From Alphaproteobacteria bacterium (GTDB taxonomy: Bacteria > Pseudomonadota > Alphaproteobacteria > GCA-2731375): a DNA stretch of 64,000 nucleotides. The stretch spans positions 608,001-672,000 of the forward strand of contig CBDDPY010000002.1 in assembly GCA_965232515.1 (NCBI GenBank), read 5' to 3'. The position numbers and the translations under genes were made by a program. Shown here in pieces: positions 15,091 to 31,072 of this stretch (its first letter is position 1; each line of letters begins with the position of its first letter). The notes under the pieces were generated by a model that made no database searches, had not been told where the DNA came from, and worked only from the letters and a program-made list of their open reading frames with translations.

Positions 15091-15097
15091 TGCGGTC

Positions 15098-15144
15098 GCG
15101 TCTCCGGGTACGCTCTATATAATGTAACCGGAGACGCTTGACAA
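15098..15144 (-). promoter_or_regulatory. sigma70-like promoter of yjfIJC embedded in an inverted repeat
   Basis: Minus strand TTGTCA(15144-15139)-17 nt-TATATA(15121-15116); arms GCGTCTCCGGGTAC 15098-15111 and GTAACCGGAGACGC 15124-15137. Confidence 0.65.
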
Positions 15145-15223
15145 GATTCGATCGACACGTCAACCTGGGGTTTAGAGAAAAACCGTTAAGGTCCGGCAAC
15201 GCGGCGCGACGGCGAGGCGACTG

Positions 15224-16279
15224 ATGAACGGAAATCGGACATCAACCGTCCTTTGGCATGCCTATCTTTTTGTCGCCGAACTGCGATGGCAGGCCTTGGT
15301 GGCCGTCATTGGCGGACATGCACTGGTTGCATATGTGGGGCTTCGACTCGCAGGTGAGGGCGACCTGACCGGCTGGGTCGATTTCATTTACTTCTACACC
15401 ACGACCGCTTCAACGGTCGGCTATGGCGACCTTTCGCCGTCATCGCCGGCCGGCAGGCTATTCACCGCGATCTGGATTTTTCCAGGTGCGCTGATCATTT
15501 TCACCACGGTCCTGGCCAAGCTCACCACGACCTTCGCCAGCATCTGGAGACGCAGAATGGAAGGCTTCGGAGATTATAGCGGCTTGGACGGAGCCACGGT
15601 GATCGTCGGCCATCATCCCCAGCGAACGCGCCGGATGATCGACGAAATCATTGCCGGCGGCGGCGATTCGGCGCCGGTAATCCTGGTCTCACGCGAAAAG
15701 CCAAACTTTGACGACGAACGCGTTCGCTTCGTGCGTGGGGATACCCTGTCCAACAAACGCGATCTCTTGCGCGCCGGGATTGCGAGCGCCGCGAAGGTGA
15801 TCGTCTATGCCGATGACGACGAGAACACGCTTGCCGCAGCCATGGCGGTCGCGGCCATTAACGATTCAGCCCATCTTGTCGCCTACTTCGGCGACGAGCA
15901 GAAAGCAGAACTTCTGCAGGCCCATACGCGCGCCGTCTGCGTTGTTAGCCAGTCGGCCGAGCTGGTCGTGCGGGAGATGCAGGATCCGGGTGCGTCTCAG
16001 GTAATGACGGCGCTTTCGGCGGCCCGGACCAGCGATACGGTTTATTCGTTCGAAGTTCCGGATGGTTGCGCCGCCGATTACGGTACCCTGTTCGACGCGC
16101 TGCATCGCGAGTTCGGCGCCACGGTCATCGCGCGCGCGGCTGCGAATGGCGGTGAGCCCCAGTTCAACGCAGCGCGTGATGGCGCCTTGAGGAGTGGTGA
16201 TCAGGTTTTCTACATCAGGTCAACGCGCCTGAGCGATCGGGAGATCGGCGCGGCGCTGGCCACGGCACCACGGGGATAG
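15224..16279 (+). CDS. 2-TM potassium channel with RCK/TrkA-N domain
   Basis: Selectivity filter TTASTVGYGD; Rossmann-like IVGHH, FVRGD, RAGI. Confidence 0.92.
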   Translation: MNGNRTSTVLWHAYLFVAELRWQALVAVIGGHALVAYVGLRLAGEGDLTGWVDFIYFYTTTASTVGYGDLSPSSPAGRLFTAIWIFPGALIIFTTVLAKLTTTFASIWRRRMEGFGDYSGLDGATVIVGHHPQRTRRMIDEIIAGGGDSAPVILVSREKPNFDDERVRFVRGDTLSNKRDLLRAGIASAAKVIVYADDDENTLAAAMAVAAINDSAHLVAYFGDEQKAELLQAHTRAVCVVSQSAELVVREMQDPGASQVMTALSAARTSDTVYSFEVPDGCAADYGTLFDALHREFGATVIARAAANGGEPQFNAARDGALRSGDQVFYIRSTRLSDREIGAALATAPRG

Positions 16280-16280
16280 G

Positions 16281-16919
16281 ATGTTCAAACTGTTCCGAGG
16301 CAAGGGCGATGGCGATAAACCGACGCTGCCGGAGATCCTCAAACTGACGATTGGCCGGACGGCGTTGATCGATGAGATCGCGCTGAAGCTGATCCCCGAC
16401 GACAGTCTGCTTGACGTGCCATCGGCGACGTTGCCGATCGTCGCGCAAGGCACCGCCGACATGGGCGAGGGGGTGACGCTGCATCGCTTCTACCCGGACG
16501 ACGATAGCGTGCTGCTGCAGGTCCTCGGCGGCGACGGTCGTGAAGACCAAACGGTTCAGGAGATAACACTGTTCTTCGTGTTGGATGCTTACTATCCCAG
16601 CGCGGACGCGGATTTCGAGGCTTGGCGGGAGCGCATTCGCCAGACCAGCTTCGATCTGAATGGCACGAATTTCCAACGGGCCTGGTTCGACAATTCGGAC
16701 AAGCCCGAGGATCCGGTCTCGTTCTGGGAAGACGTGTTCGATGACCGGTCGGCCGCCACATCGCGGCGGATCTACCAGACCTGCATGCTGTTTGTCAGGC
16801 GAATCGGTAGCTTCGACGAGTTTCTTTTGGTCAACATGGAAGAGCCAGAGGGGGCCGGCGACCGCTGCGTCAGCCTCATGGTGGGCGTGCCGCTTTCGCC
16901 GAACGCGATCGACGTATAA
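16281..16919 (+). CDS. yjfK: YjfK (DUF2491) family protein
   Basis: LHRFYPDDD, FQRAW, IYQTCMLF, LLVNMEE; gene context. Confidence 0.8.
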   Translation: MFKLFRGKGDGDKPTLPEILKLTIGRTALIDEIALKLIPDDSLLDVPSATLPIVAQGTADMGEGVTLHRFYPDDDSVLLQVLGGDGREDQTVQEITLFFVLDAYYPSADADFEAWRERIRQTSFDLNGTNFQRAWFDNSDKPEDPVSFWEDVFDDRSAATSRRIYQTCMLFVRRIGSFDEFLLVNMEEPEGAGDRCVSLMVGVPLSPNAIDV

Positions 16920-16949
16920 GTTCGGTGCATAGCCTTTAGGGAAATAACG

Positions 16950-17360
16950 ATGGAAGAATTTCTCGCATCGGTATCGGGGGTCGTCCCGTTCCTGATCTAC
17001 TTCGTGTCCGCCATTGTCGTCGTGATGGTGTTCATGCGGATCTATACCGCGATCACGCCGCATGGCGAAGTCGAGTTGATCAAGCAGGACAATGCGGCCG
17101 CGGCGGTCGCCTACGTCGGCGCCATGTTCGGCTTCATGTTGCCAATAGCCTCGGCGATCGCCAATTCCGTCAGTTTGATCGATTTCGCGATCTGGGCCGT
17201 GATCGCCGGCGTCATTCAGCTAATTACATTTTTCATCTTTCGGCGGTTCTACCCCCGCATTTCGGAGCGGATCGAAGCCGGCGAAATGGGGGCCTCGATC
17301 CAGCTCGCAGGCGTGTCGGTCATGGTCGGCGTGCTGAACGCGGCATGCATCGTCTACTGA
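16950..17360 (+). CDS. yjfL: DUF350 (YjfL) 4-TM membrane protein
   Basis: IYTAITPHGEVELIKQDNAAAA, GVLNAAC. Confidence 0.88.
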   Translation: MEEFLASVSGVVPFLIYFVSAIVVVMVFMRIYTAITPHGEVELIKQDNAAAAVAYVGAMFGFMLPIASAIANSVSLIDFAIWAVIAGVIQLITFFIFRRFYPRISERIEAGEMGASIQLAGVSVMVGVLNAACIVY

Positions 17361-17373
17361 TGCGGAGGCGGCG

Positions 17374-17928
17374 ATGAAACGATCAAAATCCGTTAAGTTG
17401 AGCTTGATGGCGACCGCCAGCGTGGCGTTGACGGCCTGCGGCGAGCCGGAGGTCGAGGGCAATATGTACCGGAGCGTCGCCGATTGTGTCTCGCAGGGCG
17501 CCCATAGCGAGCAGATCTGCAAACAATCATTCGACGAGGCTTGGAAGCTGCATCAGACCACGGCGCCACGCTACGCGTCGGAGCAGCTCTGCCAGGACGA
17601 GTTCGGTTTTCAGCAATGCCAGCGCACATCCGGCAACTATTGGAGCCCGTTCCTGACCGGCTTCTTTGTCTCGACCGCGTTGAGCAACGCCAGTAGCGGC
17701 AGCGGCGCCTATGTCGGCGGCAGCAGACCGATTTATCGATATCGTGATGGCCGGTTGCTCACATCATCTGGGGCTGAGATGCAAAGCGGCGGCAGATCGG
17801 TGGCTCTGCCGAAGTCTGCCGTGGAAGCGCGGCCGAAACCGGCCAAAGTGATGACCCGTACGGCCGTGATCAGTCGCGGCGGGTTCGGCGCGAGGTCGAG
17901 CAGCGGCGGATTCCGGTTCGGCGGCTGA
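17374..17928 (+). CDS. yjfM: DUF1190 (YjfM/YgiB) lipoprotein
   Basis: MKRSK...LTAC lipobox; Y.SV.DC, APRY..EQLC..EFG..C; SRGGFG tail. Confidence 0.88.
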   Translation: MKRSKSVKLSLMATASVALTACGEPEVEGNMYRSVADCVSQGAHSEQICKQSFDEAWKLHQTTAPRYASEQLCQDEFGFQQCQRTSGNYWSPFLTGFFVSTALSNASSGSGAYVGGSRPIYRYRDGRLLTSSGAEMQSGGRSVALPKSAVEARPKPAKVMTRTAVISRGGFGARSSSGGFRFGG

Positions 17929-17943
17929 GCCGCCATTCGTCAT

Positions 17944-18927
17944 TCAGTTCGCCAGCGCGCGGAACATTCCCGGCGTGAGGCCTGTCGCCTGCCGAAAGAC
18001 ACGGCTGAAGTGGGCTTGATTGGCAAATCCGCAGACCATGGCAATCTCGGCGAGACTGGCCTCGCGCGTTGACAGCATCGCCTTCGCGCGCTGCAGCCGT
18101 TGCTCGACGACGTAGCGGTGTGGGGTTTCGCCGACCGCGGCCTTGAAGGCGCGGGCGAAATGGTGGCGGCTCAGGCAAGCAATGCCTGCCATCTCCTGCA
18201 GACTCAGGGCGCCGTCGAGATTGGCGGCGATGTAGTCCTTCACCCGATTTAGCCGACGCAGATCAAGCGCACCTTCGGCTCGCGGCAACCGTGCGGCGCC
18301 GGGGCCGAGATTAGAGTGATGACGTAGCAGATAGGCGGCGAGCGTCGCGCTCAGTGTTTCGATCAGCAGGCCGCTTGCCGGCGCTGGGTCGGCGAGCTCG
18401 GTGCGGACGGCGCGGGCAATCTGTTCAATCAGCGGATCGTGGAAGCCGCCGTCATACTGAAGCTGAACGTTTGCCGGGTCGCGGTCAAACTCGGCCAACG
18501 ACGTCGTATCGAGCGGCGTATCCGGCAGGTAGAGATGGATGCTCTCGCTGATCTCGCCATTCAGGCGGATCATATCCTCGCGAATACCGGCCGGGCAGAG
18601 CCAGACCGTGCCCGGCACCGCCGCCGTTTGCTGCAGTCGACCGTCGCCGCGCCGGCGAACATTCAACCGGCCGTCAATCAGCACCACGACCTCTGTCTCG
18701 CGCGGCTCGATCTCCGCCAGATCGCCGGGCCGATGGCGCCATCGTTCAGCCAGCAACCCTTCCCAGGCGCGACCGTGGCTTGAAGCCAGGCAGACGCCTG
18801 TCGTGTATTTCTCGTCGCCGTGACCAACCAGCCCCGACACTGGCTTGTTCCGACCCTCGCCTGTTTCCCGGACACGCCGGGTTCGTTTTGCCGGCCGCCG
18901 ACAATCGGCGCCGGCCTCATTTGGCAT
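17944..18927 (-). CDS. AraC family transcriptional regulator
   Basis: LSRHHFARAFK..GETPH and GFANQAHFSRVFR..G.TP double HTH; GTG at 18840 is an alternative start. Confidence 0.92.
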   Translation of the reverse strand: MPNEAGADCRRPAKRTRRVRETGEGRNKPVSGLVGHGDEKYTTGVCLASSHGRAWEGLLAERWRHRPGDLAEIEPRETEVVVLIDGRLNVRRRGDGRLQQTAAVPGTVWLCPAGIREDMIRLNGEISESIHLYLPDTPLDTTSLAEFDRDPANVQLQYDGGFHDPLIEQIARAVRTELADPAPASGLLIETLSATLAAYLLRHHSNLGPGAARLPRAEGALDLRRLNRVKDYIAANLDGALSLQEMAGIACLSRHHFARAFKAAVGETPHRYVVEQRLQRAKAMLSTREASLAEIAMVCGFANQAHFSRVFRQATGLTPGMFRALAN

Positions 18928-18990
18928 TCAAGGCTAACGGAATATGCACGTAGCCGCCATGCCAAACGCTATCGCGGATTCGACGCTTCC

Positions 18991-19053
18991 GCACGTTCGA
19001 GCAAAACAAGCGCACGACCGGACAATTCTCACTCACCCGTCGAGAGCTATCCT
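18991..19053 (+). promoter_or_regulatory. putative AraC-activated promoter with tandem half-sites
   Basis: GCACG-N6-CAA at 18991 and 19012 (21-bp period); candidate -10 TATCCT at 19048. Confidence 0.5.
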
Positions 19054-19109
19054 GAGGTTCGCAAAGAACGTTCGCCTGAACGAACCGCACCTGAACAGGG
19101 GAGCAACCG

Positions 19110-21254
19110 ATGACAGAGACCACCGTGGTGGGCGCTTGCCCGCATGATTGTCCCGATACTTGCTCGATGCTGATCACGGTCAAGGACGGCCGCGCGACGG
19201 CGGTGCGCGGCAATCCCGATCATCCGTTTACGCGAGGCGGGCTCTGCGTCAAGGTCAACAACTATCAGGATCGGGCCTACAGCCCGGACCGCGTGCTGTA
19301 TCCGTTGCGGCGCAGCGGGCCCAAGGGCAGCGGCAAGTTCGAGCGCATAAGCTGGGACGACGCGCTGGCGGAGATCAAGCAGCGCTGGACAGCCATCATC
19401 GACGAACACGGTCCGACGGCGATCCTGCCGTACAGCTACCTCGGCACTGAAGGCATCTTGAACGGCCTGAACGTCGGCGATCCGTTCTTCAACAAGCTGG
19501 GCGCCACGATCAGCGAACGCACGTTCTGCGACTCCGGCTCCTGCACCGCCTACTTCATGACCATCGGTCCGACGCCGGGTGTCGATCCCGAGGCGTTCCG
19601 GTACTCGAAATACATCGTGCTCTGGGCCTGCAACACAATGAGCACCAACCTGCATCATTGGCCGTTCATCGCCGAAGCTCAGGCGCAGGGCGCCAAGGTG
19701 GTGGTGATCGATCCGGTCAAGACGCGGACGGCCAAGAAAGCCGACTGGCACATCCCGATCCGGCCCGGCACTGACGCGGCGCTGGCGCTCGGCATGATCA
19801 ACGTGATCATTGAAGAGGACCTGGTCGATCACGACTATGTGGCCAACTACACGCTGGGCTACGACGAACTGAAGCAGCGCGCGGCGGAGTATCCGGCCGA
19901 GAAGGTGTCGGAGATCACCGGCATTCCGGCCGACGATATCCGAACGCTGGCGCGCGAGTTCGCGACCAGCAACCCGGCCGTTGTCCGCATCGGCGTCGCC
20001 ATCGAACGGCACGCCGGTGGCGGCCAGACGGTGCGCGCGGTGGCCTGCCTGCCCGCCTTGACCGGCGCCTGGCGGCATGTCGGCGGCGGCATCCTGCAGC
20101 TGCCGATCTGGGCCTTTCCGATGGACTGGGGCAAGCTGCTGCGGCCCGATCTGCAGACGCCGGGGACCCGCGTGTTGAACCAGTGGCGGCTCGGTCCGGC
20201 GCTGGTCGGCGAGATGGACCTGGACCCACCGATCAAGTCGCTGTTCGTCTACAACTCGAATCCGGCCGTGGTTGCGCCCGAGCAAGGTAAGCTGCTGCGC
20301 GGTTTGGCTCGAGAAGACCTGTTCACGGTCGTCAGCGAGCACTTCATCACCGACACGGCCCAGTATGCCGACATCATCCTACCGGCAACGACGCAGTTGG
20401 AGCAGGAGGACATCATGTTCTCCTGGGGCCACCTCTACCTGTCCTTCAACAACCAGGCGATCGATCCGTTGGGCGAGGCGGTGCCGAACACCGAGTTGTT
20501 CCGCCGTCTGGCCGCGACCATGGGCTTCGACGACCCCTTCTTCCAGCGCAGCGATACCCAGATGATCGAGGAGTCGCTCGACTGGTCGGCGCCCGCGCTC
20601 GAAGGCATCAGTCTCGACGAGCTTCGCGAGACCGGTTACGCGCGGCTCAATGTCGGCACGCCGGAGACCTATGCGCCGCACAAGGAGGGCAACTTCCTGA
20701 CGCCGTCGGGCAAGTGCGAATTCAAGGCGTCCATGGCCGAGAACGGCAATTTCGTGCTGTCGCTGTTCCGTCAGGGCTCGGAGGAATTCCAGTCCGGCGA
20801 CCCGGTCGACCCGTTGCCGCACTACATCCCGCCGAACGAGTCGCCGATCACGAATCCGGCGTTGGCGAAGCGCTATCCGTTGAACCTGATGTCGCCGAAG
20901 AGCCACGCATTCATGAATTCGAGCTATGGCAACATGCCGCAGCAACTGCACCATGCCGGCGAGCAGGCGTTGATGTTGAGCCCGGTGGACGCGCGGGACC
21001 GAAACATCGGCGACGGCATGCCGGTTGTTGTCAGCAACGACCGGGGGTCGTTCCAGGCTGTCGCCAGGGTCGATGAGGACGTGATGCCGGGCGTGGTGGT
21101 GGCGCCGCTCGGTTATTGGCGTAAGTTGAGCCCCGGCGAAGCGACCGTGCAGGCCGTCAACTCCGGCGCCTATGCCGATCTGGGCAACGCGCCGACTTTT
21201 TCCGATAACCTTGTCGAGGTCGCGCCGGTAGCGGCCGCGCAAGCTGCGGAGTAG
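19110..21254 (+). CDS. molybdopterin (bis-MGD) oxidoreductase of the DMSO reductase superfamily, cytoplasmic
   Basis: CPHDCPDTC...GGLCVK Fe-S motif, ISWDDA, VVIDP, IRPGTD, TDTAQYADIILPAT, C-terminal molybdopterin dinucleotide domain; no Tat signal. Confidence 0.92.
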   Translation: MTETTVVGACPHDCPDTCSMLITVKDGRATAVRGNPDHPFTRGGLCVKVNNYQDRAYSPDRVLYPLRRSGPKGSGKFERISWDDALAEIKQRWTAIIDEHGPTAILPYSYLGTEGILNGLNVGDPFFNKLGATISERTFCDSGSCTAYFMTIGPTPGVDPEAFRYSKYIVLWACNTMSTNLHHWPFIAEAQAQGAKVVVIDPVKTRTAKKADWHIPIRPGTDAALALGMINVIIEEDLVDHDYVANYTLGYDELKQRAAEYPAEKVSEITGIPADDIRTLAREFATSNPAVVRIGVAIERHAGGGQTVRAVACLPALTGAWRHVGGGILQLPIWAFPMDWGKLLRPDLQTPGTRVLNQWRLGPALVGEMDLDPPIKSLFVYNSNPAVVAPEQGKLLRGLAREDLFTVVSEHFITDTAQYADIILPATTQLEQEDIMFSWGHLYLSFNNQAIDPLGEAVPNTELFRRLAATMGFDDPFFQRSDTQMIEESLDWSAPALEGISLDELRETGYARLNVGTPETYAPHKEGNFLTPSGKCEFKASMAENGNFVLSLFRQGSEEFQSGDPVDPLPHYIPPNESPITNPALAKRYPLNLMSPKSHAFMNSSYGNMPQQLHHAGEQALMLSPVDARDRNIGDGMPVVVSNDRGSFQAVARVDEDVMPGVVVAPLGYWRKLSPGEATVQAVNSGAYADLGNAPTFSDNLVEVAPVAAAQAAE

Positions 21255-21331
21255 CCATCGCAAGACTGGACGCTAAGATAGGGCCCGCCAGACCCGGTAT
21301 CGTTTACGGGCAAGCCGATGGGAGGGGTTTG

Positions 21332-22972
21332 ATGGGCAGCGAAGACTCGGGCTTCGACTACGACGGCATGCGTGCGGCGTTCAAGCTGGACATGCCGCAG
21401 CACTACAACTTCGCGTTCGACGTGGTGGCGAAGCGCGGCCGCGAGGCTGACAAGGACGCGCTGATCGCGATCGACAAGACCGGCGAGCTGGTCGAACGGC
21501 TCAGCTATTCGGATCTGGATCGGATGTCGAACCGGTTCGCGAACGTGCTGCTTGAGCTCGGCGCCGCGAAGGGCGACTTCGCGCTTGTCGTGATCCCGCG
21601 AATACCGGCCTGGTACCATGTGCTGCTTGGCTGCATGAAGGCGGGCGTTGTGTCGATGCCCGGCACCAATTTGCTGACCGCCAAGGACTTCGAGTATCGG
21701 ATCAATCGCGCTGAGGCGAAGCTCGCGATCGTCACCAAGGAGCATGCGGCCAAGGTCGAGCAGATCCGGCACAACTGCCCCTCGCTCGAGAAGGTGATCG
21801 TGATCGGCGAAAGCCGTGATGGCTGGACCGACTTCGAGACGGCTTGCGCGGACGCCTCCGAAGACGCACCGGAGGTGCCCCCCACCGCCGCCGACGACCT
21901 GATGATGGTCTATTTCACTTCCGGCACCACCTCGATGCCGAAGATGGTGGGGCGGAACTACGGTTATGCATTGGCGCACACCATCACCGCCAATTACTGG
22001 ATGGGGCTCACGCCGGATGACGTGCACTGGACGCTGACAGACACCGGCTGGGCAAAGGCGGCCTGGGGACTGCTGTTTCCCCCGTTGCTGTCCGGCGCCA
22101 CGATCATGCTCTTCGACGGCGAGGGCTTCGACGCCGAGATGCATCTGAAGCTGATCGAGCGTTTCGGGGTAACGACGTTCTGCGCGCCACCGACGATCTA
22201 TCGGGTCTTCGCGCAGATGGACACGGGCCCATTCGACTTGAGCTCGCTGCGGCACTGCATGGGGGCGGGCGAACCGTTGAACCCGGAAGCCATGCGGGCC
22301 TGGAAGGCGGCGAGCGGCTGCGACGTCTATGACGGCTATGGCCAGACCGAGACGGTCAACATCGTCGCCAACTTCCCGGGCATGGAGATCCGGCCCGGCT
22401 CCATGGGCAAGCCGGTGCCGGGCCTCGACGTCGACGTCATCGACGACGACGGCAATATCGTCGGCGATGACGATGTCGGCCATATCGCAGTGCGGATCAC
22501 CGACCCCTATCCGCCGGGTCTGTTCGACGGCTATTTCCGGGATCCGGCGGCGACGGAGCAGTCCTTCCGCAACGATTGGTACTACACCGGCGACACCGCG
22601 ACCCGGGACAAGGACGGCTATCTCTGGTTCGTCGGCCGTTCCGACGACATCATCTCGTCCGCCGGCTATCGCATCAGCCCGTTCGAGGTCGAGAGCGCGC
22701 TGATCGAGCACAAGGCGGTTCTGGAATCGGCTGTCGTCGCCATGCCGGACAAGCTGCGCGGGGAGATCGTGATGGCCTATATCACGCTGGCACCCGGCTT
22801 CGAGGCCTCGGACATGCTGAAGGAAGACATCCAGTCCTTCGTCAAGGAGCTGACGGCGCCTTATAAATATCCCCGCGAGATCGAGTTTCGCGAGGCATTG
22901 CCGAAGACGATCTCTGGCAAGATCCGGCGTGTCGAGTTGCGTGAGGAGGCCCGGCAAAAGGCGCAGGCGTGA
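21332..22972 (+). CDS. medium-chain acyl-CoA synthetase (ACSM-like)
   Basis: YFTSGTT..PK, DTGWAKAAW, GYGQTET, TGD, GRSDD, LPKTISGKIRR. Confidence 0.92.
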   Translation: MGSEDSGFDYDGMRAAFKLDMPQHYNFAFDVVAKRGREADKDALIAIDKTGELVERLSYSDLDRMSNRFANVLLELGAAKGDFALVVIPRIPAWYHVLLGCMKAGVVSMPGTNLLTAKDFEYRINRAEAKLAIVTKEHAAKVEQIRHNCPSLEKVIVIGESRDGWTDFETACADASEDAPEVPPTAADDLMMVYFTSGTTSMPKMVGRNYGYALAHTITANYWMGLTPDDVHWTLTDTGWAKAAWGLLFPPLLSGATIMLFDGEGFDAEMHLKLIERFGVTTFCAPPTIYRVFAQMDTGPFDLSSLRHCMGAGEPLNPEAMRAWKAASGCDVYDGYGQTETVNIVANFPGMEIRPGSMGKPVPGLDVDVIDDDGNIVGDDDVGHIAVRITDPYPPGLFDGYFRDPAATEQSFRNDWYYTGDTATRDKDGYLWFVGRSDDIISSAGYRISPFEVESALIEHKAVLESAVVAMPDKLRGEIVMAYITLAPGFEASDMLKEDIQSFVKELTAPYKYPREIEFREALPKTISGKIRRVELREEARQKAQA

Positions 22973-22985
22973 CGGCGAAGCGGCG

Positions 22986-24131
22986 TCAGGTCAGTGCTTT
23001 TTCGTAGACGCGATAGGTCTTGTAGTGGCGGCAGCCGGCGGATTCGACCAGTCGGCGCATGCCCATATTGTCTTCGAGGATCCAGCTGGCTTCGACCTGC
23101 TTGACGCCGTGCTTGATGCCGCTGGCGCGGATGCGGCTGATGATGGCGCAGGCGAGAGCGGCGCCGACCGGCGTGCGGTGATAGGCCCGGCGCACGCCCA
23201 TCAGCGGCACGCGCGCCGTCGCCACCGTGCCGAACTTGAGCCGCCATAGGAGCTTGGCCCAGCCAAACGGAAGCAGTTTTCCGTTCAAATCGCGGATGGC
23301 CTCGTTCAGGTTTGGCAGCCCCACCATCATCGCCGCCGGCGTTCCGTCGACGTCGGCAATGCAGACGAAGTCGTCGCGTAGCAGCGGCTTCAGCTCTTTC
23401 GCCACGTGCTGGATCTCGTCCTCGTCGAAGGGCACGAAGCCCCAGTTGTCGGACCAGGCGTCGTTGAAGATGTCCATGATGACCGAGATATCGCGGGCGT
23501 AGTTGGCGCCGGTCAGGCAGCGGACGACGATTTTGTGGCTGGCCTTGGCCTTCTCGGCCATGGTCTCAACGAAGGCCGGCAATGGTTTGGAAAAGTCGTA
23601 CAGATAAGCCAGCAGATCCTTGGCCTTGGCATAGCCCTGCCGTTCGATCCTGTCGCCATAATAGGTCGGCGCGTGCCCCATCATCATGAACGGCGCCGTG
23701 CCGAAGCCGTCCACGAGCAAGCCGGATTCGTCATTGATCGACAGCGAGAAGGGGCCGCGTACGCGCCGCATGCCGTGGGCCCGTAACCAGTCTTCGGCGG
23801 CGTTGAACAACGCGTTGAAAACGGCGGGGTCGTCCTCCGCCTCGAAAAAGCCGAAATGGCCCGTCGCGTCGTCGTGCTGCGCAAGAGACATCCGGTCGAT
23901 CTGCGCGCTGATGCGACCGACCGGCGCGCCGTAGCGCCGGGCAAGCCAGAACGCCGTCTCGGCATGGTTGAAGAAAGGGTTGGCCTTGCGGTTCAGATGG
24001 CCACGACGTTCGAATTCAAGTGGCGCGACCCAGTTTGGATCGGTCCTGTAAACGCGCCTGGGCATTGCAATGAAGCTATTCAGCGACGCGCTGTCGTCAA
24101 CCGGCTCGACCGTTAGACCGTCATCGCTCAC
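22986..24131 (-). CDS. GNAT N-acyltransferase of the bacterial ceramide synthase (bCerS)/YghO-like family
   Basis: DPNWVAPL, NPFF.H, PVGRISAQID, GHFGFFE, GPFSLSINDESGLLVDGF, DAWSDNWGFVP, SWILEDN, KTYRVYEK; GTG start overlaps the upstream TGA (GTGA). Confidence 0.8.
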   Translation of the reverse strand: MSDDGLTVEPVDDSASLNSFIAMPRRVYRTDPNWVAPLEFERRGHLNRKANPFFNHAETAFWLARRYGAPVGRISAQIDRMSLAQHDDATGHFGFFEAEDDPAVFNALFNAAEDWLRAHGMRRVRGPFSLSINDESGLLVDGFGTAPFMMMGHAPTYYGDRIERQGYAKAKDLLAYLYDFSKPLPAFVETMAEKAKASHKIVVRCLTGANYARDISVIMDIFNDAWSDNWGFVPFDEDEIQHVAKELKPLLRDDFVCIADVDGTPAAMMVGLPNLNEAIRDLNGKLLPFGWAKLLWRLKFGTVATARVPLMGVRRAYHRTPVGAALACAIISRIRASGIKHGVKQVEASWILEDNMGMRRLVESAGCRHYKTYRVYEKALT

Positions 24132-25753
24132 AGCTCGCCGACCTCGAGCGATCGTGCGATGGCGCGTCGCCGCAGCTTGCCGCTGGACGTTTTCGGCAGG
24201 GTGTGCGGATCGACAAACCGGATCTGATCGACATCCATGCCGCGGTGTTTCAACGCGGACTGGATGCGCTCGGCCAACTCGGGCCGTCGGTCGGATTTCA
24301 GGCGGGTCTCGGCCACCAGAACGGCGTGTTCGGTGCTGCGCTGTTCGTTGCGGATGCCGACCGCCGCGACGCCACCAGGTCGGACGCCGTCGACATCGGC
24401 CGCGATCTGTTCGACCACGGACGGGACCAGGTTGCGCCCGGCGCGGATGATCAGTTCCTTCTGTCGCCCGGTCACGTAGAGATCGCCGTCGGCGACATAA
24501 CCGAGATCCCCGGTTCTCAGCCAATCCCCGTCGAAGGCCTCTTCCGTCGCCTCGGGATCGTCGTAATAGCCGGTCATGCCCGATGCCGTGCGCACCATGA
24601 TCGGGCCGACGATCCGCTCCTCGGCTTCGCCGCCAGCGCCGTCGTCGATCCGTAGTTCGACACCGGCGATCGGACGGCCGACGCTGGTGAACGCCAGCGC
24701 ATCTTCGGCATCGCTTGTTGCCGCTTGTCCCTGTCTTGCCAGGACGGCGGCCGATACCCGGTCGACCCTCGGCGGCTGCGCGGGCGCGGCGAACGTGGCG
24801 GCGACGGTGGCTTCCGCCAACCCATAGACGGGAAGAAAAGCCGATGCCCGAAAACCGCATTGTTCGAACCCGTTCGCGACGCGATGCAGAACGTTGGGCG
24901 CGATCGGCTCGGCGCCGACCATGGCGCAACGCAGGTCGCCGAAGTCGAGCTGGTCGGACGCGGCACGCCGCGCGAAGCGGTCAATCAACGCATAAGCCGA
25001 TGGCGGGCCGACCGTGTGGGTCGCCCGAAACGCGGAGACCGAACGCAGCCACAGGTACGGGTTCCGCCGGAAATCCAGCGGCGACATCAGATTCACGACG
25101 AAGTCGTTGTAGTACGGATAAAGCAGACCGCCGATCAGGCCCATGTCGTGATGCAGCGGCAGCCAGCTGACGCCGACCGCATCATCTCCTGGCGGCAGGG
25201 CCTGGCTGATGGCGGCGAGATGCGCGAGTAGCCGATCGTTCGGAATGACGACGCCGCGCGGTGTGGCCACGCTGCCGCTGGTCAGTTGAATCAGATCGGT
25301 TCGCGTTGTTGCGGGGTTTGTTGCCGCCGCTGCTTCCGACAGGTCTTCGGCGATCACGACCGGTGGCGTTGCGGTCATTTCGATGTGGGCCGCCACCTCG
25401 CGGCCGACGGCGGCCAGTTTCACGTCGAAACGATCGGCGACCTCCCGAAAATGGGCGTTCAAACCGGCAATATCATCGAGCCGAAACGGCCGCCCGATCT
25501 GGATCGGCACGCCGCCGGCCGTCCAGATTCCGAACAGGGTGGCGACGGCTGGCCGCGAATGCGGCACCATGGCCAGCACATTTTGTCCCGGGCGCAGACC
25601 GGCGTCCCGCAGCCCACCGGCAACCCGCCGCGCCGTCTGCCAGAACTCGGCCCATGTCCAGGACTGCCAACCATCCGCCGCGTAAAAGCGGATTGCCAGT
25701 CTGTCCGGATCCCGTTCGGCGCGCTGCCGCAGGAGATCGACCAGCGAGGTCAT
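24128..25753 (-). CDS. fatty acyl-AMP ligase (FAAL) / acyl-ACP synthetase
   Basis: LIQLTSGS, SWLPLHHDMGLIG, PVYGLAEAT followed by a FAAL-type insertion, TGDLG, LPKTSSGK; ATG overlaps upstream TAA. Confidence 0.88.
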   Translation of the reverse strand: MTSLVDLLRQRAERDPDRLAIRFYAADGWQSWTWAEFWQTARRVAGGLRDAGLRPGQNVLAMVPHSRPAVATLFGIWTAGGVPIQIGRPFRLDDIAGLNAHFREVADRFDVKLAAVGREVAAHIEMTATPPVVIAEDLSEAAAATNPATTRTDLIQLTSGSVATPRGVVIPNDRLLAHLAAISQALPPGDDAVGVSWLPLHHDMGLIGGLLYPYYNDFVVNLMSPLDFRRNPYLWLRSVSAFRATHTVGPPSAYALIDRFARRAASDQLDFGDLRCAMVGAEPIAPNVLHRVANGFEQCGFRASAFLPVYGLAEATVAATFAAPAQPPRVDRVSAAVLARQGQAATSDAEDALAFTSVGRPIAGVELRIDDGAGGEAEERIVGPIMVRTASGMTGYYDDPEATEEAFDGDWLRTGDLGYVADGDLYVTGRQKELIIRAGRNLVPSVVEQIAADVDGVRPGGVAAVGIRNEQRSTEHAVLVAETRLKSDRRPELAERIQSALKHRGMDVDQIRFVDPHTLPKTSSGKLRRRAIARSLEVGEL

Positions 25754-26685
25754 TACCGGGCGTCGGGAACGGCCCAGTGTTGGGGATTGCTGCCGCTGTG
25801 TCCCTTGGCGGCGAGGATCATGTATTCGAGCGCCGTACGCCGGGCGAACGAGGTTCGGCCGACCGTCATGTAGCATTGCAGCAGGCGTGCAAAACCGGGC
25901 GCCAAGGCCTCGATCCGGGCCCGGTTGCGGCGGATGTTGTCGATCCAATCGGCGACCGTGCGCACGTAGGAGGCCGTCATGTCCTCGACCAGCCGGACGT
26001 CCAGGCCCGCCTGACCCATGAGCTCGAGTTCTTCCGGCAGCGACATCAGGCGGCAATAACCCATCGCCTTCGAGAGGATGTAGTCGGTCGCGTTGCTGTC
26101 GCGCGGGCCGCGGGTTTCGGTCGGAAAATAGCAGTCGGAGATCAACATCCGGCCGCCCGGACGAAGGATGTCGCCGACCCACCGATGGATGGTCTCGCGG
26201 TTATGCATATGGACGATGCTGCCACAGAAGATGACGGCGTCGACCGACTCCGGCGCGAGGTCGAGATCTTCGATGTGCTGCAGGTCGACCGTTATGCGGT
26301 CCGCGACGCCACGCGCCTCGGCGCGTTCCAGCAAAACCTCGCGCTGGCGCTCGCTCAAGGTGATGCCATGAAAGATGCCGTCGGTCTGGGCGGCCAGGTT
26401 CAACATCACGCTGCCCCAGCCGCAACCGACGTCGAGCACCTTTTCGCCCGGCTTGATCTGAAGCAGGTTCCGGAAGTGCTTGAACTTGCGGGTCTGCGCA
26501 GTTTCGAGATCGTCGTCGTCGTCGAGATAGATGCCGGTCGAGTAGGCGAGCTGACTGTCCAGGACGAGGGAGAAGATCTCCGGATCGTGTTCGTAGTGGG
26601 CCGCAACTTGTTCACGCTCGAAGCCGCGCTGCTCGTCCGGCGATCGCCGTAACGCGGCTTGCTCGATCGGTGTGCGCGCTTCCAT
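25753..26685 (-). CDS. SAM-dependent methyltransferase of the CFA/mycolic acid synthase family
   Basis: AHYE, LDSQLAYS, LETAQTRK, VLDVGCGWG, GITLSERQ, LRPGG, YVRTVADW. Confidence 0.88.
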   Translation of the reverse strand: MEARTPIEQAALRRSPDEQRGFEREQVAAHYEHDPEIFSLVLDSQLAYSTGIYLDDDDDLETAQTRKFKHFRNLLQIKPGEKVLDVGCGWGSVMLNLAAQTDGIFHGITLSERQREVLLERAEARGVADRITVDLQHIEDLDLAPESVDAVIFCGSIVHMHNRETIHRWVGDILRPGGRMLISDCYFPTETRGPRDSNATDYILSKAMGYCRLMSLPEELELMGQAGLDVRLVEDMTASYVRTVADWIDNIRRNRARIEALAPGFARLLQCYMTVGRTSFARRTALEYMILAAKGHSGSNPQHWAVPDAR

Positions 26686-26966
26686 CAGTGTTTCGCCGCC
26701 GCCATCTGTTCGAGCACCACGTCGACAAGATCGTCGACCACCTTGGGATCGCGCGCTTCCATTTCATCGACGTCCAGCATGGTGATGCCAAACCGTTCCT
26801 CGATCGCGACCTGCGTTTCGATGAGCGCCATCGAATCGATGCCGAGGTCGTTGTCCAAACCGGTCTTCGTCGTGACGGAGGTGCGTGGGATATTCAAAGT
26901 GGTGGCGATAATCTCGCACACCGCGGTGGCGACCGACTCCCTGTCGGCAATCGTATCGGTATTCAA
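26685..26966 (-). CDS. acyl carrier protein
   Basis: Small acidic protein with DLGIDSM phosphopantetheine site and IEERFGI; TGA overlaps the next ATG; TTG start uncertain. Confidence 0.9.
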   Translation of the reverse strand: MNTDTIADRESVATAVCEIIATTLNIPRTSVTTKTGLDNDLGIDSMALIETQVAIEERFGITMLDVDEMEARDPKVVDDLVDVVLEQMAAAKH

Positions 26967-27015
26967 GAGATGCCCTCTTCTCAGCCCGCCGTCGACGTGT
27001 AACGAACGGAGAGTG

Positions 27016-27045
27016 TCTTATCGCCGTTGGTCGGAAACCTGTCAA
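27016..27045 (-). promoter_or_regulatory. putative sigma70 promoter of the ACP-MT-FAAL-GNAT operon
   Basis: Minus strand TTGACA (27045-27040) followed 17-19 nt later by GATAAGAC; -10 is weak. Confidence 0.4.
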
Positions 27046-27073
27046 CGACACCGGAGATGGGCGGCCGGGCGGC

Positions 27074-30000
27074 TCAGGTCAATTCGCCAAGCTGATTTCG
27101 TGCGTCGATGAGGTCGGGCGAAGACCGTCCTTCGGTGAGGTGGTCGTAGATTGGCCATAGCAGATCGTAGGCCTCGGCGCGCCGGTCCTGGCGCTGCAGA
27201 TGGCGGGCAAAACTGGTCGCGGTTCGCAGTTCCAGGGTCCTTGAATGCTGCCGTCCCGCGACGTCGAGGGCTTGTTTGAAGCAGGATTCGACGGCGCCGT
27301 TGCCGTTCGCCGGCGTCATGCTCAGCAGGTTGCCCTTGACCCGGTAAAGCTCGGCTTCGAACCAGCGTTCTCCGTTTTCGGCCGTCACCGTTTCGGCTTC
27401 GTCCAGAACGCTCAGGCCTTCCTCAACCCGATCGGCCTGACCCAGGGCCTCGGCCAGTCCGCTCAGGAAGATCGGCCGCCAGAGTCGGGCATAACCCGTC
27501 GAATCGAGCGCCGTTAGCCCGTGCTGCATCGCCTTGATGCCGTCAGGAAGATTGCCCTGCTGACAGATCGCCCAGCCCTGGCAGACGCCGGCGACTGCAG
27601 ACCAGTGCATCAAGTCCTGTTCAACCGCGAGCGAGATCAACGATTCGGCATGCGATTTCACCTGCTCCCAATCGCGACAGAACGCCTGCAGCATGATGCC
27701 CGCGTGCGATATGGCGATGCCGAGCGTATTCGCATGCGATAGCGCCTGGGCTTGGTCGATAGCCTGCTGGCCGTTTTCCTGCGCGCGATCGTAATGACCG
27801 AGATGCCAGAGCGTCCATGAGAGGTAGCAGAGCCCGGCGACGTAGCCGGATTGAAAGGTGATGGATCGCTGTTCGGCCGGCACGCGGTGTTCGGTCGCGC
27901 GTTTCAAATGGCTGTGCGCCAACTCGAGCTCACCGGCCATCAGCAGGGAGGTGCCCAGCATGCGGTTGCCGGCGAGCAGCGCGGCATCAGATTTCTGGTG
28001 CTCTGCCAGCCGAAGAAACTCTTCCGCCAGCGCGCGCGACTTCTCGGTTTCGCCGCGCCCATAGTGGAATACCCAGCGCCCGTTCAGAACGGGAAAGAAC
28101 TTCGCCGTGTCGCCGACCCGGCGACACAGCTCGAGCGCCCGCGTGAACGTCCGCTCCAGTTGCGGCGAGGTATAGCCGGCCGACGATACGATCGGCTCGG
28201 TTAGGGCGATCTGCAGATCGAGTTCCAGGGCGTCGCGCTCGCCGCTCTCCGGCAAGTCGTTCAACAGCTCCAGCGCCTTCGTCAGGTGCGCGACCGCCTC
28301 GGCATTGGCCGACCGTTTCGTTGCCCGCTTGCCGGCATGCTGCCAGTAGTGGATCGCACGGTCGGCCAGCCCGGCCTCCGTGAAATGATGCGCCAGGACT
28401 TCGGGTTCCTGTTTGACCTGCTCGGGGAACTGGTCCTCGAAGGTTCGTGCGATCGCCTGATGATAACGCTGCCGCGTGCTTTTCAGCAGTGACTCGTAGG
28501 CGGCATCACGCACAAGCGAGTGTTTGAACTCGAACCTCGCGTTTGCCGGCGGACCGCGCCGGTAGATCAACTCGGCGTCCACCAGCTGCGCCAGGGCGTC
28601 GTCAAGCTCGCGCTCGTCATAAGCCGAAACGGCGGCCAGGACTTCGCGCGTAAACGTCCGTCCGAGCGTTGCGGCGAGCTGGGCCAGCTGCTTGACCGGC
28701 GCCAGCCTGTCGAGCCGCGCCATCAGCGAATCCTGCAGTGTCGTCGGCACTTGCAGCTTCAGCAGCGGACGCGCCGAATCCCGGCTCCCGTCCGGACTTG
28801 GAACCCAGCCGGATTCGATCACCGTCTTCGTCAGCTCCTCGACGAACAGCGGCACGCCGTCCGTCTTGGCGATGATCTGATCGAGGACTTCCACCGGTAG
28901 TCGACGGTTGCGCGTCAGTCGTTCCACCATCTTCGCGCACTCGCCCCGCTCCAGTCGGCTGAGCGGCACGTAGGTGACATGGTCGAGGCCTTGCCAGTGT
29001 GGTTTGTATTCCGGGCGGAACGTGATCAGGACCAGCGCCCGCACGTGCCGCGCGCGATCGACGATCAGGTCCAGCAATTCCTGGGTCGTCGGGTCGATCC
29101 AGTGCGCATCCTCGAACACGATCAGCACGGGCTGCTGCACCGCCAGGGTCTTCAGCTGTTCAGCGATGACCGCGAAGGTCATCTCCTTCTGGCGTTTGGG
29201 ATCGAGCTTCAGCTCGGGGTAGCCATCGCCGGTCGGCACCGAAAGCAGCGACGCGATCAGCGGCAACACCTGATCGCGCGCGGCGCCGGCGTTCGACAGC
29301 AGCGTTTCGAGTTTTCTGAGCTTGCGTTCCGGCGGATCGTGCGCTTCGAACTGAGCCGCGTGGCTGAGCTGGTTGACCAGCGGGTAGAGCGCGCTGTTGA
29401 TGTGATGCGGCGAGCATTGATAGCGCAGCCTTTGTTGCGGCTGGTCGCCGATCTTCTCGCGCAGGGCCTGCGTAATGCGTGACTTGCCGATGCCGGCTTC
29501 GCCCGATAGCAGCACGACCTGTCCCTTGCCGTCTTTCGCCCGCTGCCAGCAGTCGTGCAGCAGATCGACTTCCTTTTGACGGGCGATAAACGGCGTCAGA
29601 CCGCGGGCGTGGCGCGCTTCGAAGCGGCTGGTCAGCCGATGCTCGCCCAAAACGTTCCAGGCCTGAACCGGCTCACTAAAACCTTTCAACACATGGTGGC
29701 CCAGATAGACGCTGTCGAAGGCTTCGCCGATCAACAGGCGGGTCCGCGGCGCGATCAGAACCTGTCCGGGCGCGGCCCTGGCCTGCAATCTGGCGGCGAG
29801 ATTGGGCGTTTGGCCGACAATGTCTTCGGACGGCGCGTCGCTGGTCCCGACGGTGTCGCCGACCACGACGACACCGCTGGCAATCCCGATCCGGGCGGCC
29901 AGTGGCGTGCCATCGGGATCGGCAAGCTCGGCGACCGCGGCCGCCATCGCCAGTCCCGCACGCACGGCGCGCTCGGCATCGTCCTCATGAGCCCGCGGCC

Positions 30001-30418
30001 AACCGAAATAGGCCTGCACGCCATCGCCGACGTATTTGGCGACGTGCCCGTCGAAACGCCGGACAATGGCGCCGCAGGCACTGAGGTACCGATTCATCAG
30101 TTTTGACAGGTCTTCCGGGTCGAGCTTGACCGAGAGCGCCGTCGACCCCACCAGGTCGCAGAACAGCACGGTCAGATGACGTCGCTCCGGCTCGATCCAG
30201 CCCGGCTCCGAGGCGGCCGGTTCGTCGGTCGACGCGGAAAGTTGGGCAGCTTCCGCAAGCAGTCGTTTTCGGTGGCCCAACGACGAAACGCCAATTTCCT
30301 TCAGGTCCGAGTCGGTCAGCGTTGGCAGCAGCGCCATATCGATATGGTTTGCCGCGAAGGCATCGGCGTAGTCGCCGAGACCCAGATACTCCAGCCAGGA
30401 CGTCACCTCGCCCGACAT
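27074..30418 (-). CDS. SAM domain - class III adenylate/guanylate cyclase - STAND ATPase - TPR protein
   Basis: WLEYLGLGDY..F SAM; LFCDLVGST, KYVGDG, NLAARLQ cyclase; GEAGIGKS Walker A, VFEDAHW Walker B, GVPLFVEE, FKHSLVRDAAY. Confidence 0.93.
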   Translation of the reverse strand: MSGEVTSWLEYLGLGDYADAFAANHIDMALLPTLTDSDLKEIGVSSLGHRKRLLAEAAQLSASTDEPAASEPGWIEPERRHLTVLFCDLVGSTALSVKLDPEDLSKLMNRYLSACGAIVRRFDGHVAKYVGDGVQAYFGWPRAHEDDAERAVRAGLAMAAAVAELADPDGTPLAARIGIASGVVVVGDTVGTSDAPSEDIVGQTPNLAARLQARAAPGQVLIAPRTRLLIGEAFDSVYLGHHVLKGFSEPVQAWNVLGEHRLTSRFEARHARGLTPFIARQKEVDLLHDCWQRAKDGKGQVVLLSGEAGIGKSRITQALREKIGDQPQQRLRYQCSPHHINSALYPLVNQLSHAAQFEAHDPPERKLRKLETLLSNAGAARDQVLPLIASLLSVPTGDGYPELKLDPKRQKEMTFAVIAEQLKTLAVQQPVLIVFEDAHWIDPTTQELLDLIVDRARHVRALVLITFRPEYKPHWQGLDHVTYVPLSRLERGECAKMVERLTRNRRLPVEVLDQIIAKTDGVPLFVEELTKTVIESGWVPSPDGSRDSARPLLKLQVPTTLQDSLMARLDRLAPVKQLAQLAATLGRTFTREVLAAVSAYDERELDDALAQLVDAELIYRRGPPANARFEFKHSLVRDAAYESLLKSTRQRYHQAIARTFEDQFPEQVKQEPEVLAHHFTEAGLADRAIHYWQHAGKRATKRSANAEAVAHLTKALELLNDLPESGERDALELDLQIALTEPIVSSAGYTSPQLERTFTRALELCRRVGDTAKFFPVLNGRWVFHYGRGETEKSRALAEEFLRLAEHQKSDAALLAGNRMLGTSLLMAGELELAHSHLKRATEHRVPAEQRSITFQSGYVAGLCYLSWTLWHLGHYDRAQENGQQAIDQAQALSHANTLGIAISHAGIMLQAFCRDWEQVKSHAESLISLAVEQDLMHWSAVAGVCQGWAICQQGNLPDGIKAMQHGLTALDSTGYARLWRPIFLSGLAEALGQADRVEEGLSVLDEAETVTAENGERWFEAELYRVKGNLLSMTPANGNGAVESCFKQALDVAGRQHSRTLELRTATSFARHLQRQDRRAEAYDLLWPIYDHLTEGRSSPDLIDARNQLGELT

Positions 30419-30535
30419 GCGTTCCCTCACGATGTGGCCGAATCGATGCTATCAAAAAGACCGCTGTCCGACCTTCGAAAACCTCGAATATCTTGCGTCG
30501 TTCATGAACGATCGAGTTGACTTGAATTGGTTGAT

Positions 30536-30611
30536 TGGTGCCGGCGGCAGGAGTCGAACCCGCGACCTACTGATTACAAATCAGTTGCTCTACCAGCTGA
30601 GCTACACCGGC
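30536..30611 (-). tRNA. tRNA-Thr(TGT)
   Basis: GCCGGTG acceptor stem, CTGAT-TTGTAA-TCAG anticodon arm, GGTTCGAC T-loop, encoded CCA; 76 nt. Confidence 0.97.
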
Positions 30612-30760
30612 AATATTGCGCGCTTACGCCTGTAAACCCGCTGCGGTGATATCCCAGATTGACCACCACCGCCAAGAGAGAAGTTGCGCCCGCGGCGTTA
30701 CCGAACGTCAATCTTGCCATGCGACAAAAGCCCGTCGGATAACGCCGAACGGGGGACGGG

Positions 30761-31072
30761 GTGAGGGAGTATCGGGGGCTTCGCCGCATCTGGGCGATCT
30801 TTAGCATCTGTTGGTGTGTCCTGGTGGTCACGGGCGCTTTGGGCATCCAGAGCCGCGACCGGACCGACCTGGCTGGTGTTCGCGCCGAGATGCCGCTGTC
30901 CGGGTCCTTGGCGCCGCAGCATGTCGAATACCGCGCGCCGTCAATCGTCGCGACGATGTTCATCGCGGTCGCGTTTCCGGCCGCGCTGTTTCTCTTCGGT
31001 ATTGGCTACATCCGCTATTGCCGGCCGCGATATGCGGCCATGCCGCGCCTGACCGTCGATCGGCAGCAATAG
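30761..31072 (+). CDS. small hypothetical membrane protein (2 hydrophobic segments)
   Basis: IWAIFSICWCVLVVTGALG and IVATMFIAVAFPAALFLFGIGY; no family recognised. Confidence 0.4.
   Translation: MREYRGLRRIWAIFSICWCVLVVTGALGIQSRDRTDLAGVRAEMPLSGSLAPQHVEYRAPSIVATMFIAVAFPAALFLFGIGYIRYCRPRYAAMPRLTVDRQQ

Follow-up and report, generated by a model that had tools for sequence, protein, structure and literature searches.

Ceramide synthesis in bacteria was not defined until 2021-2022, and to our knowledge the described state is one bacterial ceramide synthase (bCerS) per genome. In Caulobacter, the region CC_1168-CC_1152 contains, in this order, aasR, cerR, acpR and spt, a ceramide kinase and decoration genes, LptF2/LptG2 and cerS (CC_1154) (PMC11324152; this and the other articles cited here by accession are represented by parts of their text). 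Dedicated pairs of an acyl-acyl carrier protein (acyl-ACP) synthetase, AasR, and its ACP, AcpR, act with cognate specificity and steer free fatty acids into sphingolipids, and bCerS, of which yghO of E. coli BL21 is named as a homologue, is termed an acyl-CoA N-acyltransferase (PMC9386255). In the Fsh system, the fatty acyl-AMP ligase (FAAL) FshA loads the ACP FshE, and FshF, a methyltransferase (MT) of the CMAS/CFAS family that lies near many uncharacterised homologues from several phyla, modifies the tethered cis-unsaturated chain in vitro, giving vinyl-branched and cyclopropanated products (2026, PMC13548996). The window described here (the whole analysed stretch of 64,000 nucleotides from an alphaproteobacterium, GenBank assembly GCA_965232515.1, contig CBDDPY010000002.1) contains a cassette of four genes for an ACP, a CMAS-family MT, a FAAL and a tandem-GNAT protein of the bCerS family, which, judging from the sequence, probably makes a tailored, so far undescribed sphingolipid.

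The four genes lie on the minus strand in the order ACP, MT, FAAL, GNAT, with consecutive overlaps of 1, 1 and 4 bases (Table 1). Read from the sequence, the ACP stop and the MT start have the A at 26685 in common (TGATG), the MT stop and the FAAL start share the A at 25753 (TAATG), and the FAAL stop is overlapped by the GNAT start in the GTGA at 24131-24128. These open reading frames and overlaps, first pointed out in an earlier note on this DNA, were all borne out, and the family assignments made there (ACP, MT similar to cyclopropane fatty acid (CFA) synthases, FAAL and bCerS-like GNAT) hold in Pfam and NCBIfam scans and in a structural model. The same arrangement, extended to five genes, is found in the sister species G001, with protein identities of 79-92%. 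In comparison with G001, all four cassette genes are under purifying selection (dN/dS 0.21 for the ACP, 0.09 for the MT, 0.16 for residues 42-541 of the FAAL and 0.14 for the GNAT), and they are therefore real genes rather than chance open reading frames.

The link to sphingolipids is provided by the last gene. Its product scores 19.2 bits against the Pfam family Acetyltransf_1, under the cut-off of 20.7, and a PDB sequence search gave no match at E<=1. The AlphaFold2 (AF2) model, built with 37 homologues (mean pLDDT 89.7, pTM 0.88), has a tandem-GNAT fold and is closest to the tandem GNATs 2wpw, 7q3a and MshD (Foldseek E 1e-12 to 1e-16, query-normalised TM 0.54-0.64); further matches include glucosamine N-acetyltransferase, NMT and FemX (E 1e-9 to 1e-16 for the full set). 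At E<=0.001, at least 8000 homologues were found, of which the named ones are from Alphaproteobacteria and are called either 'dATP pyrophosphohydrolase' or GNAT; four clusters are 82-89% identical to the cassette protein, and the remainder of the best 120 are about 54-62% identical. A second copy, 60% identical, is encoded 5.2 Mb away on the same contig of the source genome (G000; 7.39 Mb in 4 contigs), where it forms part of a complete Caulobacter-type sphingolipid cluster (locus L028, contig C2:5884000-5903000). Since the gene order of L028 is that of Caulobacter, the distant copy is the positional equivalent of bCerS, and by this synteny with the published order the cassette GNAT is identified as a bCerS-family paralog. 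Other family members stand directly beside an Spt-like gene in G036, G424 (delta-proteobacterial) and G423 (Vitiosangium).

As the earlier note had remarked, neither Spt nor CerR is encoded in the window. Both are encoded, together with AcpR, AasR and the second bCerS, at L028, and with this nearest Spt 5.2 Mb away on the same contig the cassette GNAT is unlinked to spt and cerR. Given this full cluster, the cassette is to be regarded as a second branch in a sphingolipid producer and not as an orphan. In the organism's family, 22 of the 24 genomes sampled (counting G000) are devoid of a bCerS-like gene at E<=1e-20; G000 and G001 are the only two that have such genes, with two copies each.

The note had also proposed to place the GNAT in a phylogeny against bCerS. 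Two trees were computed, one of 52 rows by a quick method (every third of P0009-P0124 plus all key rows; the 23%-identical G031 dropped) and one of 43 rows by a careful method (every fifth of P0009-P0124; G031 dropped, as well as P0007 and P0036, which are identical to G001 copies). In both, the cassette GNATs are monophyletic with a support of 100 and are nested within the clade that contains the spt-linked copies, with the myxobacterial proteins as outgroup. The maximum likelihood topology joins them with the genus's own spt-cluster clade at a support of 27/69, so that a local duplication would be the origin favoured by the best topology, weakly supported and not shown. Moreover, of 98 positions with at least 95% conservation across 123 other members of the family, 94 are unchanged in each of the six GNATs of the cassette clade, and the consistent changes are limited to P146A and E260D, both conservative.

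The cassette also has its own predicted loading machinery. The ACP matches PF00550 (1.6e-9, 38.3 bits, cut-off 20.8) and carries Ser45 within GIDSM, where D44-S45 is invariant in 7/7 cassette or trio ACPs, i.e., those from the loci with an ACP-MT-FAAL trio described below. The ligase matches PF00501 (1.2e-49) without a match to AMP-binding_C, and its best NCBIfam matches, all under their cut-offs, are PRK07768, the PRK09192 fatty acyl-AMP ligase, the MbtM fatty acid--ACP ligase and FadD32-type FAALs. The motifs YGLAE and GRPIAG are 49 residues apart in this protein, compared to 23 in the acyl-CoA synthetase encoded convergently to the cassette and 84 in the AasR-position ligase of L028; it is in this stretch, ahead of the hinge, that FAALs carry an extra insertion. 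With an AMP-binding core, FAAL-type relatives and an ACP gene two genes upstream, the ligase is predicted to be of the FAAL type and to load the ACP. Orthology to AasR and AcpR was considered and ruled out: the ligase reaches 330 bits with PRK09192 (781 for the cluster ligase; cut-off 600), and identities to the AasR- and AcpR-position proteins are 30% and 28%. By these comparisons, the cassette ligase and ACP are a separate pair and not duplicates of AasR/AcpR.

The MT is an unusual component. It clearly belongs to the CMAS family (PF02353, 144.9 bits, cut-off 27), but remains far under the cut-offs of all NCBIfam CFA-synthase equivalogs (e.g., 126.6 vs 600). Aligned to the CFA-synthase models, its sequence begins near profile position 100-118, lacks the N-terminal domain of about 110 amino acids (aa) of the phospholipid-acting enzymes, and is aligned by MAFFT only to the C-terminal 300 aa or so of the genome's three CFA synthase-like proteins of 413-419 aa. 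Built from 15 family members, a profile matches the solved CFA synthases 5z9o (120.7 bits) and 7qos (112.9 bits) from end to end, and also the mycolic acid enzymes; N- and O-methyltransferases were among the matches of the PDB search. In these alignments, the motif YSCAYF is changed to YSTGI(Y/F), L(H)xI to ISDCY and GMFEHVG to GSIVHM, with two residues lost after the VH motif; a 4-residue insertion replaces YIFPGG, and of HYxxTL only the Tyr is kept.

In the CFA synthases, C139, E239, H266, I268 and Y317 (E. coli numbering) bind the bicarbonate of the active site and, apart from the plant enzymes, are strictly conserved (PMC3132707). The first four of these are replaced in the MT by T50, V158, S183 and C185, and the fifth is kept as Y240; the profile alignment and the MAFFT alignment with the genome's three CFA synthase-like proteins agree on these columns. 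Among the MT and 120 listed homologues, V158, H159, S183, D184 and Y240 are present in 121/121 sequences, C185 in 120/121 and T50 in 119/121, by which the family carries a fixed alternative active site. As four of the five bicarbonate ligands are replaced, no cyclopropane product is predicted, and the trio methyltransferase METHYLTRANSFERASE is, by its residues, not a standard cyclopropane synthase. The earlier suggestion of a CFA-family enzyme is therefore right as to the family, on the strength of PF02353, but the cyclopropanated chain, one of the two modifications it named, is not predicted, the Cys, Glu, His and Ile ligands being replaced. No fused form of the MT was found at E<=1e-40 among proteins of 544-2000 aa, which is weak evidence, and look-alikes in the protein atlas were confined to unnamed or CMAS-labelled clusters. 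Of the other CFA synthase-like genes in the genome (C2:2863979-2864767, C2:1801774-1802559 and C2:1057358-1058146), two have the canonical YSCAYF, FEH and H.I, and the third is divergent (YSSAVY, LEAVG, ADRYF).

The distribution of the MT differs from that of the cassette as a whole. Among 40 relatives of the source organism, a close relative of the MT (92%) is present in the same-genus G001 only; 27 others match merely through CFA synthases of 410-440 aa that are 25-34% identical. In a sample of 400 further genomes from across the class, no relative reached E<=1e-60, and in one of 300 genomes from the phylum of Sorangium G422, none did besides that of G422 itself. A large protein collection, however, contains a tight family of proteins of about 310 aa, 61-71% identical, from Sorangium, Nannocystis, Nannocystaceae, Myxococcaceae, an Acidobacteria metagenome-assembled genome (MAG) and many soil contigs. 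The cassette proteins were then aligned by tblastn to the loci recovered by genome and metagenome scans. The order ACP-MT-FAAL is present in L041 (a delta-proteobacterial MAG), L042 (Vitiosangium), L043 (Sorangium cellulosum) and G001, and five shorter contigs show a partial trio: MT-FAAL in L044 (Thermoanaerobaculia; the contig starts at the MT), L122 and L124, and ACP-MT in L121 and L125. The constant position of the MT gene between the ACP and FAAL genes points to a tethered acyl chain as the target. The quartet with the GNAT was observed only in G000 and G001 (contig C580) and is probably also present on the metagenomic contigs that yielded P0005-P0008 and P0125/P0126. Four-gene synteny, which the earlier note had proposed to look for, is thus not widely shared, and other lineages show the trio without the GNAT. 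The trio is a patchily distributed, probably horizontally moving module and, foreign to the class as sampled, would have become joined to a bCerS copy in a sphingolipid-making lineage.

Table 1. Positions of the cassette, its surroundings in the window, and the sphingolipid cluster L028 of the same genome (L028 rows are numbered within that locus).
Feature	Position	Strand	Remarks
AraC-family regulator	17944-18927	minus	
Molybdopterin oxidoreductase (DMSO/formate dehydrogenase-type catalytic subunit)	19110-21254	plus	
MbcS/acetate-CoA-ligase (Acs)-like acyl-CoA synthetase	21329-22972	plus	506 bits, under the cut-off of 850
Tandem-GNAT protein (cassette)	22986-24131	minus	381 aa, GTG start
FAAL (cassette)	24128-25753	minus	541 aa
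CMAS-family MT (cassette)	25753-26685	minus	310 aa
ACP (cassette)	26685-26966	minus	93 aa, TTG start, GAGGG 6 nt upstream of the start
TTGACA hexamer	27040-27045	minus	in the 107-nt gap before the ACP gene
SAM-domain / adenylate-guanylate (class III) cyclase / AAA_16 / TPR signalling ATPase	27074-30430	minus	Pfam, TIGR03903
tRNA-Thr(TGT)	30536-30611	minus	directly upstream of the cyclase gene
Core gene block	34852-53068		tRNA-Tyr, tRNA-Gly, tRNA-Trp and the five genes below
tuf	35186-36376		
rpoB	40016-44197		
rpoC	44298-48479		
fusA	49762-51837		
tuf, second copy	51878-53068		
secY	62513-63856		
L028 FAAL, AasR position	2909-4780		PRK09192, 781 bits, over the cut-off of 600
L028 SDR/epimerase, CerR-like	4796-5770		
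L028 ACP, AcpR position	about 5840-6090		
L028 Spt (serine palmitoyltransferase)	6020-7312		NF047599, 618.5 bits, over the cut-off of 500
L028 lipid kinase	8200-9564	minus	
L028 LptG/LptF paralogs	9141-12211	minus	
L028 bCerS (second GNAT copy)	13740-14897		
L028 cytidylyltransferase-like gene	14894-15679		

Functionally, the cassette would be a hybrid operon in which an ACP-MT-FAAL module is translationally coupled to a bCerS paralog. The FAAL would adenylate a long-chain, probably unsaturated, free fatty acid and load it onto the holo-ACP, and the MT, dependent on S-adenosylmethionine (SAM), would alkylate the ACP-tethered chain; given the loss of the usual catalytic residues, this probably yields something other than a cyclopropane. 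The bCerS paralog would then pass the tailored acyl group to the amine of 3-ketosphinganine or sphinganine, the sphingoid intermediate being supplied by the Spt/AcpR/AasR/CerR cluster 5.2 Mb away, and a special ceramide would arise next to the ordinary species, which comes from the bCerS of the cluster. In this scheme, we infer the substrates, the order of the steps and the use of acyl-ACP by the GNAT. That the ligase loads the ACP, the MT tailors the tethered chain and the bCerS paralog makes a ceramide from it has, in our estimate, about an even chance of being right. The sequence of loading, modification and transfer put forward in the earlier note stays the best reading, stripped of the cyclopropane.

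Several observations weigh against this ceramide scheme. Stankeviciute et al. are said to have found in 2022 that bCerS uses acyl-CoA in vitro. The enzyme bears the label of an acyl-CoA N-acyltransferase, and the 94/98 conserved positions give no sign that the donor has changed to acyl-ACP. With the Glu, His and Cys of the alkene-methylating machinery gone, the MT may have no action on a double bond. In none of the four trio loci with several kb of sequence past the FAAL (L041-L044) is there a GNAT homologue, so that the native acceptor of the trio is not a bCerS encoded alongside. The trio genomes do carry one bCerS-like gene each, elsewhere, with identities of 42, 42 and 40% in the three myxobacteria and a weak 26% in G425 (Thermoanaerobaculia). 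However, the latter has no convincing Spt (212 bits vs a cut-off of 500), and the trio is accordingly not intrinsically a sphingolipid module. Lastly, the best tree makes the cassette GNAT and the genus's own bCerS sisters with weak support (27/69, see above). A predicted complex of the cassette GNAT with the cassette ACP scored 0.01, which is evidence neither way.

The tailored acyl-ACP could also feed Spt, instead of or besides the GNAT. In that case, Spt would condense the modified chain with serine to a modified long-chain base, which the bCerS paralog would N-acylate with an ordinary donor. This fits the description of bCerS as an acyl-CoA user, the preference of rhodobacterial Spt for acyl-AcpR from a dedicated AasR and the acceptance by Spts of AcpRs from other species (PMC9386255), as well as the occurrence of cyclopropane-bearing long-chain bases in Sphingomonas (PMC2444003); the cassette ligase and ACP are, furthermore, distant homologues of the AasR- and AcpR-position proteins. 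The distance is at the same time an obstacle, as AasR/AcpR pairs act with cognate specificity (PMC9386255) and the cassette ACP is just 28% identical to that of the cluster. In addition, the tightest coupling in the cassette is that between FAAL and GNAT, with the GTGA overlap, and the MT is without cyclopropane-synthase residues. Production of a modified long-chain base is thus considered doubtful, though it is the least so of the rivals to the ceramide scheme.

Another view concerns the acceptor. If the bCerS paralog acylated a non-sphingoid amine, such as an amino acid, a polyamine or a lyso-lipid, the cassette would yield an N-acyl amide lipid unrelated to ceramide. Tandem GNATs acylate varied amines, the cassette GNAT is unlinked to spt, and the stem of its clade is longer (0.37-0.41 changes/site) than that of the spt-cluster clade (0.27-0.29). 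An altered acceptor nevertheless appears improbable: the retention of 94/98 family-conserved positions with two conservative changes argues for the same acceptor class, and the cassette form is found only in a lineage with the whole ceramide pathway.

A shade more improbable is that the MT acts elsewhere than on the acyl chain, methylating O, N or S of a head group, a finished lipid or, similar to BioC, a carboxylate. As a corollary, the trio would be a general module for salvage or re-esterification with an acyltransferase that varies by lineage, and in this respect the idea overlaps the other rivals. In its favour, 119-121 of 121 family members have other residues in place of the bicarbonate-binding Glu, His and Cys, N- and O-methyltransferases are among the PF02353 relatives in the PDB search, and the trio's other neighbours are lipid enzymes differing from lineage to lineage: a convergent PlsC-type acyltransferase in L042, a PAE-family esterase in L041 and, after the trio in L044, a patatin/NTE lipase that binds cyclic nucleotide monophosphates (cNMPs). 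Yet the best full-length matches of the MT are the CFA synthases 5z9o and 7qos, with alignments that reach profile position 286-298 and take in the Y..T...W motif, the MT gene lies between the ACP and FAAL genes at every trio locus, as expected for a tethered-chain enzyme, and FshF is a precedent for such an MT (PMC13548996). Mere adjacency without shared function, or a silent acquired remnant, would be compatible with the confinement of the cassette to one genus, with a promoter signal not above chance and with transcription not being demonstrated, but is very improbable in view of three start/stop overlaps, the five-gene arrangement kept in G001 and the dN/dS of 0.09-0.21 across all four genes.

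Upstream of the ACP gene, on the same strand and after a gap of 107 nt, lies the gene of a large signalling ATPase with a cyclase domain (592.7 bits against TIGR03903, under the cut-off of 705.75). An AAA_16-TPR ATPase homologue adjoins the trio in five of the seven loci that have upstream sequence, a count in which G000 and G001 are not independent. In G001, the homologue is 79% identical and unchanged in position; at L121:579-3689, it is 42% identical over 1041 aa and alike in strand and position; L041:4118-7582 has a divergent Ser/Thr kinase version and L123:3723-5657 another divergent one; L042 and L043 have none beside the trio. The ATPase is a tentative candidate regulator of the cassette, and the association is rated so because five relatives each encode 3-14 paralogs of this family. 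Together with the cNMP-binding patatin lipase, a cyclase ATPase beside the trio may indicate a cyclic-nucleotide link. In the boldest version of the ceramide scheme, the MT would represent a distinct CMAS-fold family of about 310 aa (T50/V158-H159/S183-D184-C185) with a non-cyclopropane, undescribed chemistry on the tethered chain, the product of which would be installed by a dedicated, acyl-ACP-using second bCerS as a new class of branched ceramide under cyclic-nucleotide control by the cyclase-STAND protein; in its entirety, this is unlikely.

On the other side of the cassette, the acyl-CoA synthetase gene is convergent with the GNAT gene, with the stop codons 13 bases apart and the same arrangement in G001 (L206), and its product is a possible supplier of acyl-CoA. 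As it is closely matched in just one of five family genomes, it offers no usable anchor for flank synteny. Beyond this convergent ligase lie a molybdopterin oxidoreductase and an AraC-family regulator, with no evident tie to the cassette.

The TTGACA near 27045, proposed earlier as part of a promoter, exists as a hexamer. The best -10 at a 17-nt spacing is GATAAG, and a strict scan of 22700-27300 returned 0 sites compared to a mean of 1.0 after shuffling; the promoter candidate is therefore not better than chance, and a full sigma-70-type promoter is not supported. Three RNA-seq libraries from a single study (X4, X6 and X10) contain contigs 90-99% like this region, which map onto the cassette and, at similar low depth, onto the convergent gene and the upstream cyclase gene; mapped to positions 21000-31000, those of X4 cover 30/30 bins. 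Since these data are assembled contigs that may include DNA, they establish neither a transcript nor its strand nor an operon structure for the cassette. The depth of RNA and DNA contigs is maximal at the tRNA-Thr gene. The three libraries are filed under another organism label (organism B), which suggests that a strain related to the source organism lives with organism B.

A genomic island bounded by the tRNA-Thr gene was considered and not retained, its boundary not being shown: no att-like direct repeat, including a repeat of the tRNA-Thr end, was found in 16000-31000, no integrase was seen, and the GC content is flat. With the core gene block beginning at 34852, the cassette is about 8 kb away from a strongly conserved part of the chromosome, in which the two tuf copies have identical Pfam scores.

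In the literature, no paper was found on the four-gene cassette or on a myxobacterial ACP-MT-FAAL trio; the supplementary tables of Geiger and of Klein may list bCerS paralogs. Hence, a second bCerS coupled to FAAL, ACP and MT, the cross-phylum trio and the fixed non-canonical site of the MT family are without a description that we could find. All four parts come from known superfamilies, and for every step there is a precedent: AasR/AcpR, FshAEF or bCerS. If the proposed function is correct, a second bCerS with its own carrier, loader and SAM enzyme would illustrate how bacteria vary the N-acyl (or base) chain of their sphingolipids, and it would raise the question of whether bCerS can take acyl-ACP.

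Compared to the Caulobacter pathway (AasR CC_1165, CerR CC_1164, AcpR CC_1163, Spt CC_1162, CerS/bCerS CC_1154; also yghO), the cassette is alike in its dedicated acyl-ACP synthetase and ACP and in the family of its N-acyltransferase, and a full copy of that pathway with the same gene order is present in the source genome. The cassette differs in having neither Spt nor CerR, in a ligase and an ACP that are just 30% and 28% identical to the genome's own cluster pair, in the MT inserted between ACP and ligase, and in a ligase that is coupled to a bCerS paralog and not near spt. With E. coli Cfa and with CmaA1, PcaA, MmaA1-4 and UmaA, the MT has PF02353 in common, and its size of about 300 aa without the N-terminal domain matches the mycolic acid enzymes; from all of these it differs at four of the five bicarbonate-ligand positions. 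The fungal sphingolipid C9-methyltransferase, likewise of the CFA-synthase superfamily, is membrane-bound and methylates the long-chain base of a finished ceramide. Both it and the MT are CFA-synthase-like and tied to sphingolipids, but the MT has the size of a soluble enzyme. Another parallel is FshA/FshE/FshF, which, as described, resembles the cassette in its co-located FAAL, free-standing ACP and CMAS-family MT. The Fsh proteins feed a polyketide synthase/nonribosomal peptide synthetase line with halogenases, whereas the acceptor in the cassette is a ceramide-synthase-type GNAT. As a compact cross-phylum module, the trio would be, after FshF, a second entry to the tailoring of ACP-tethered fatty acids by CMAS-fold enzymes.

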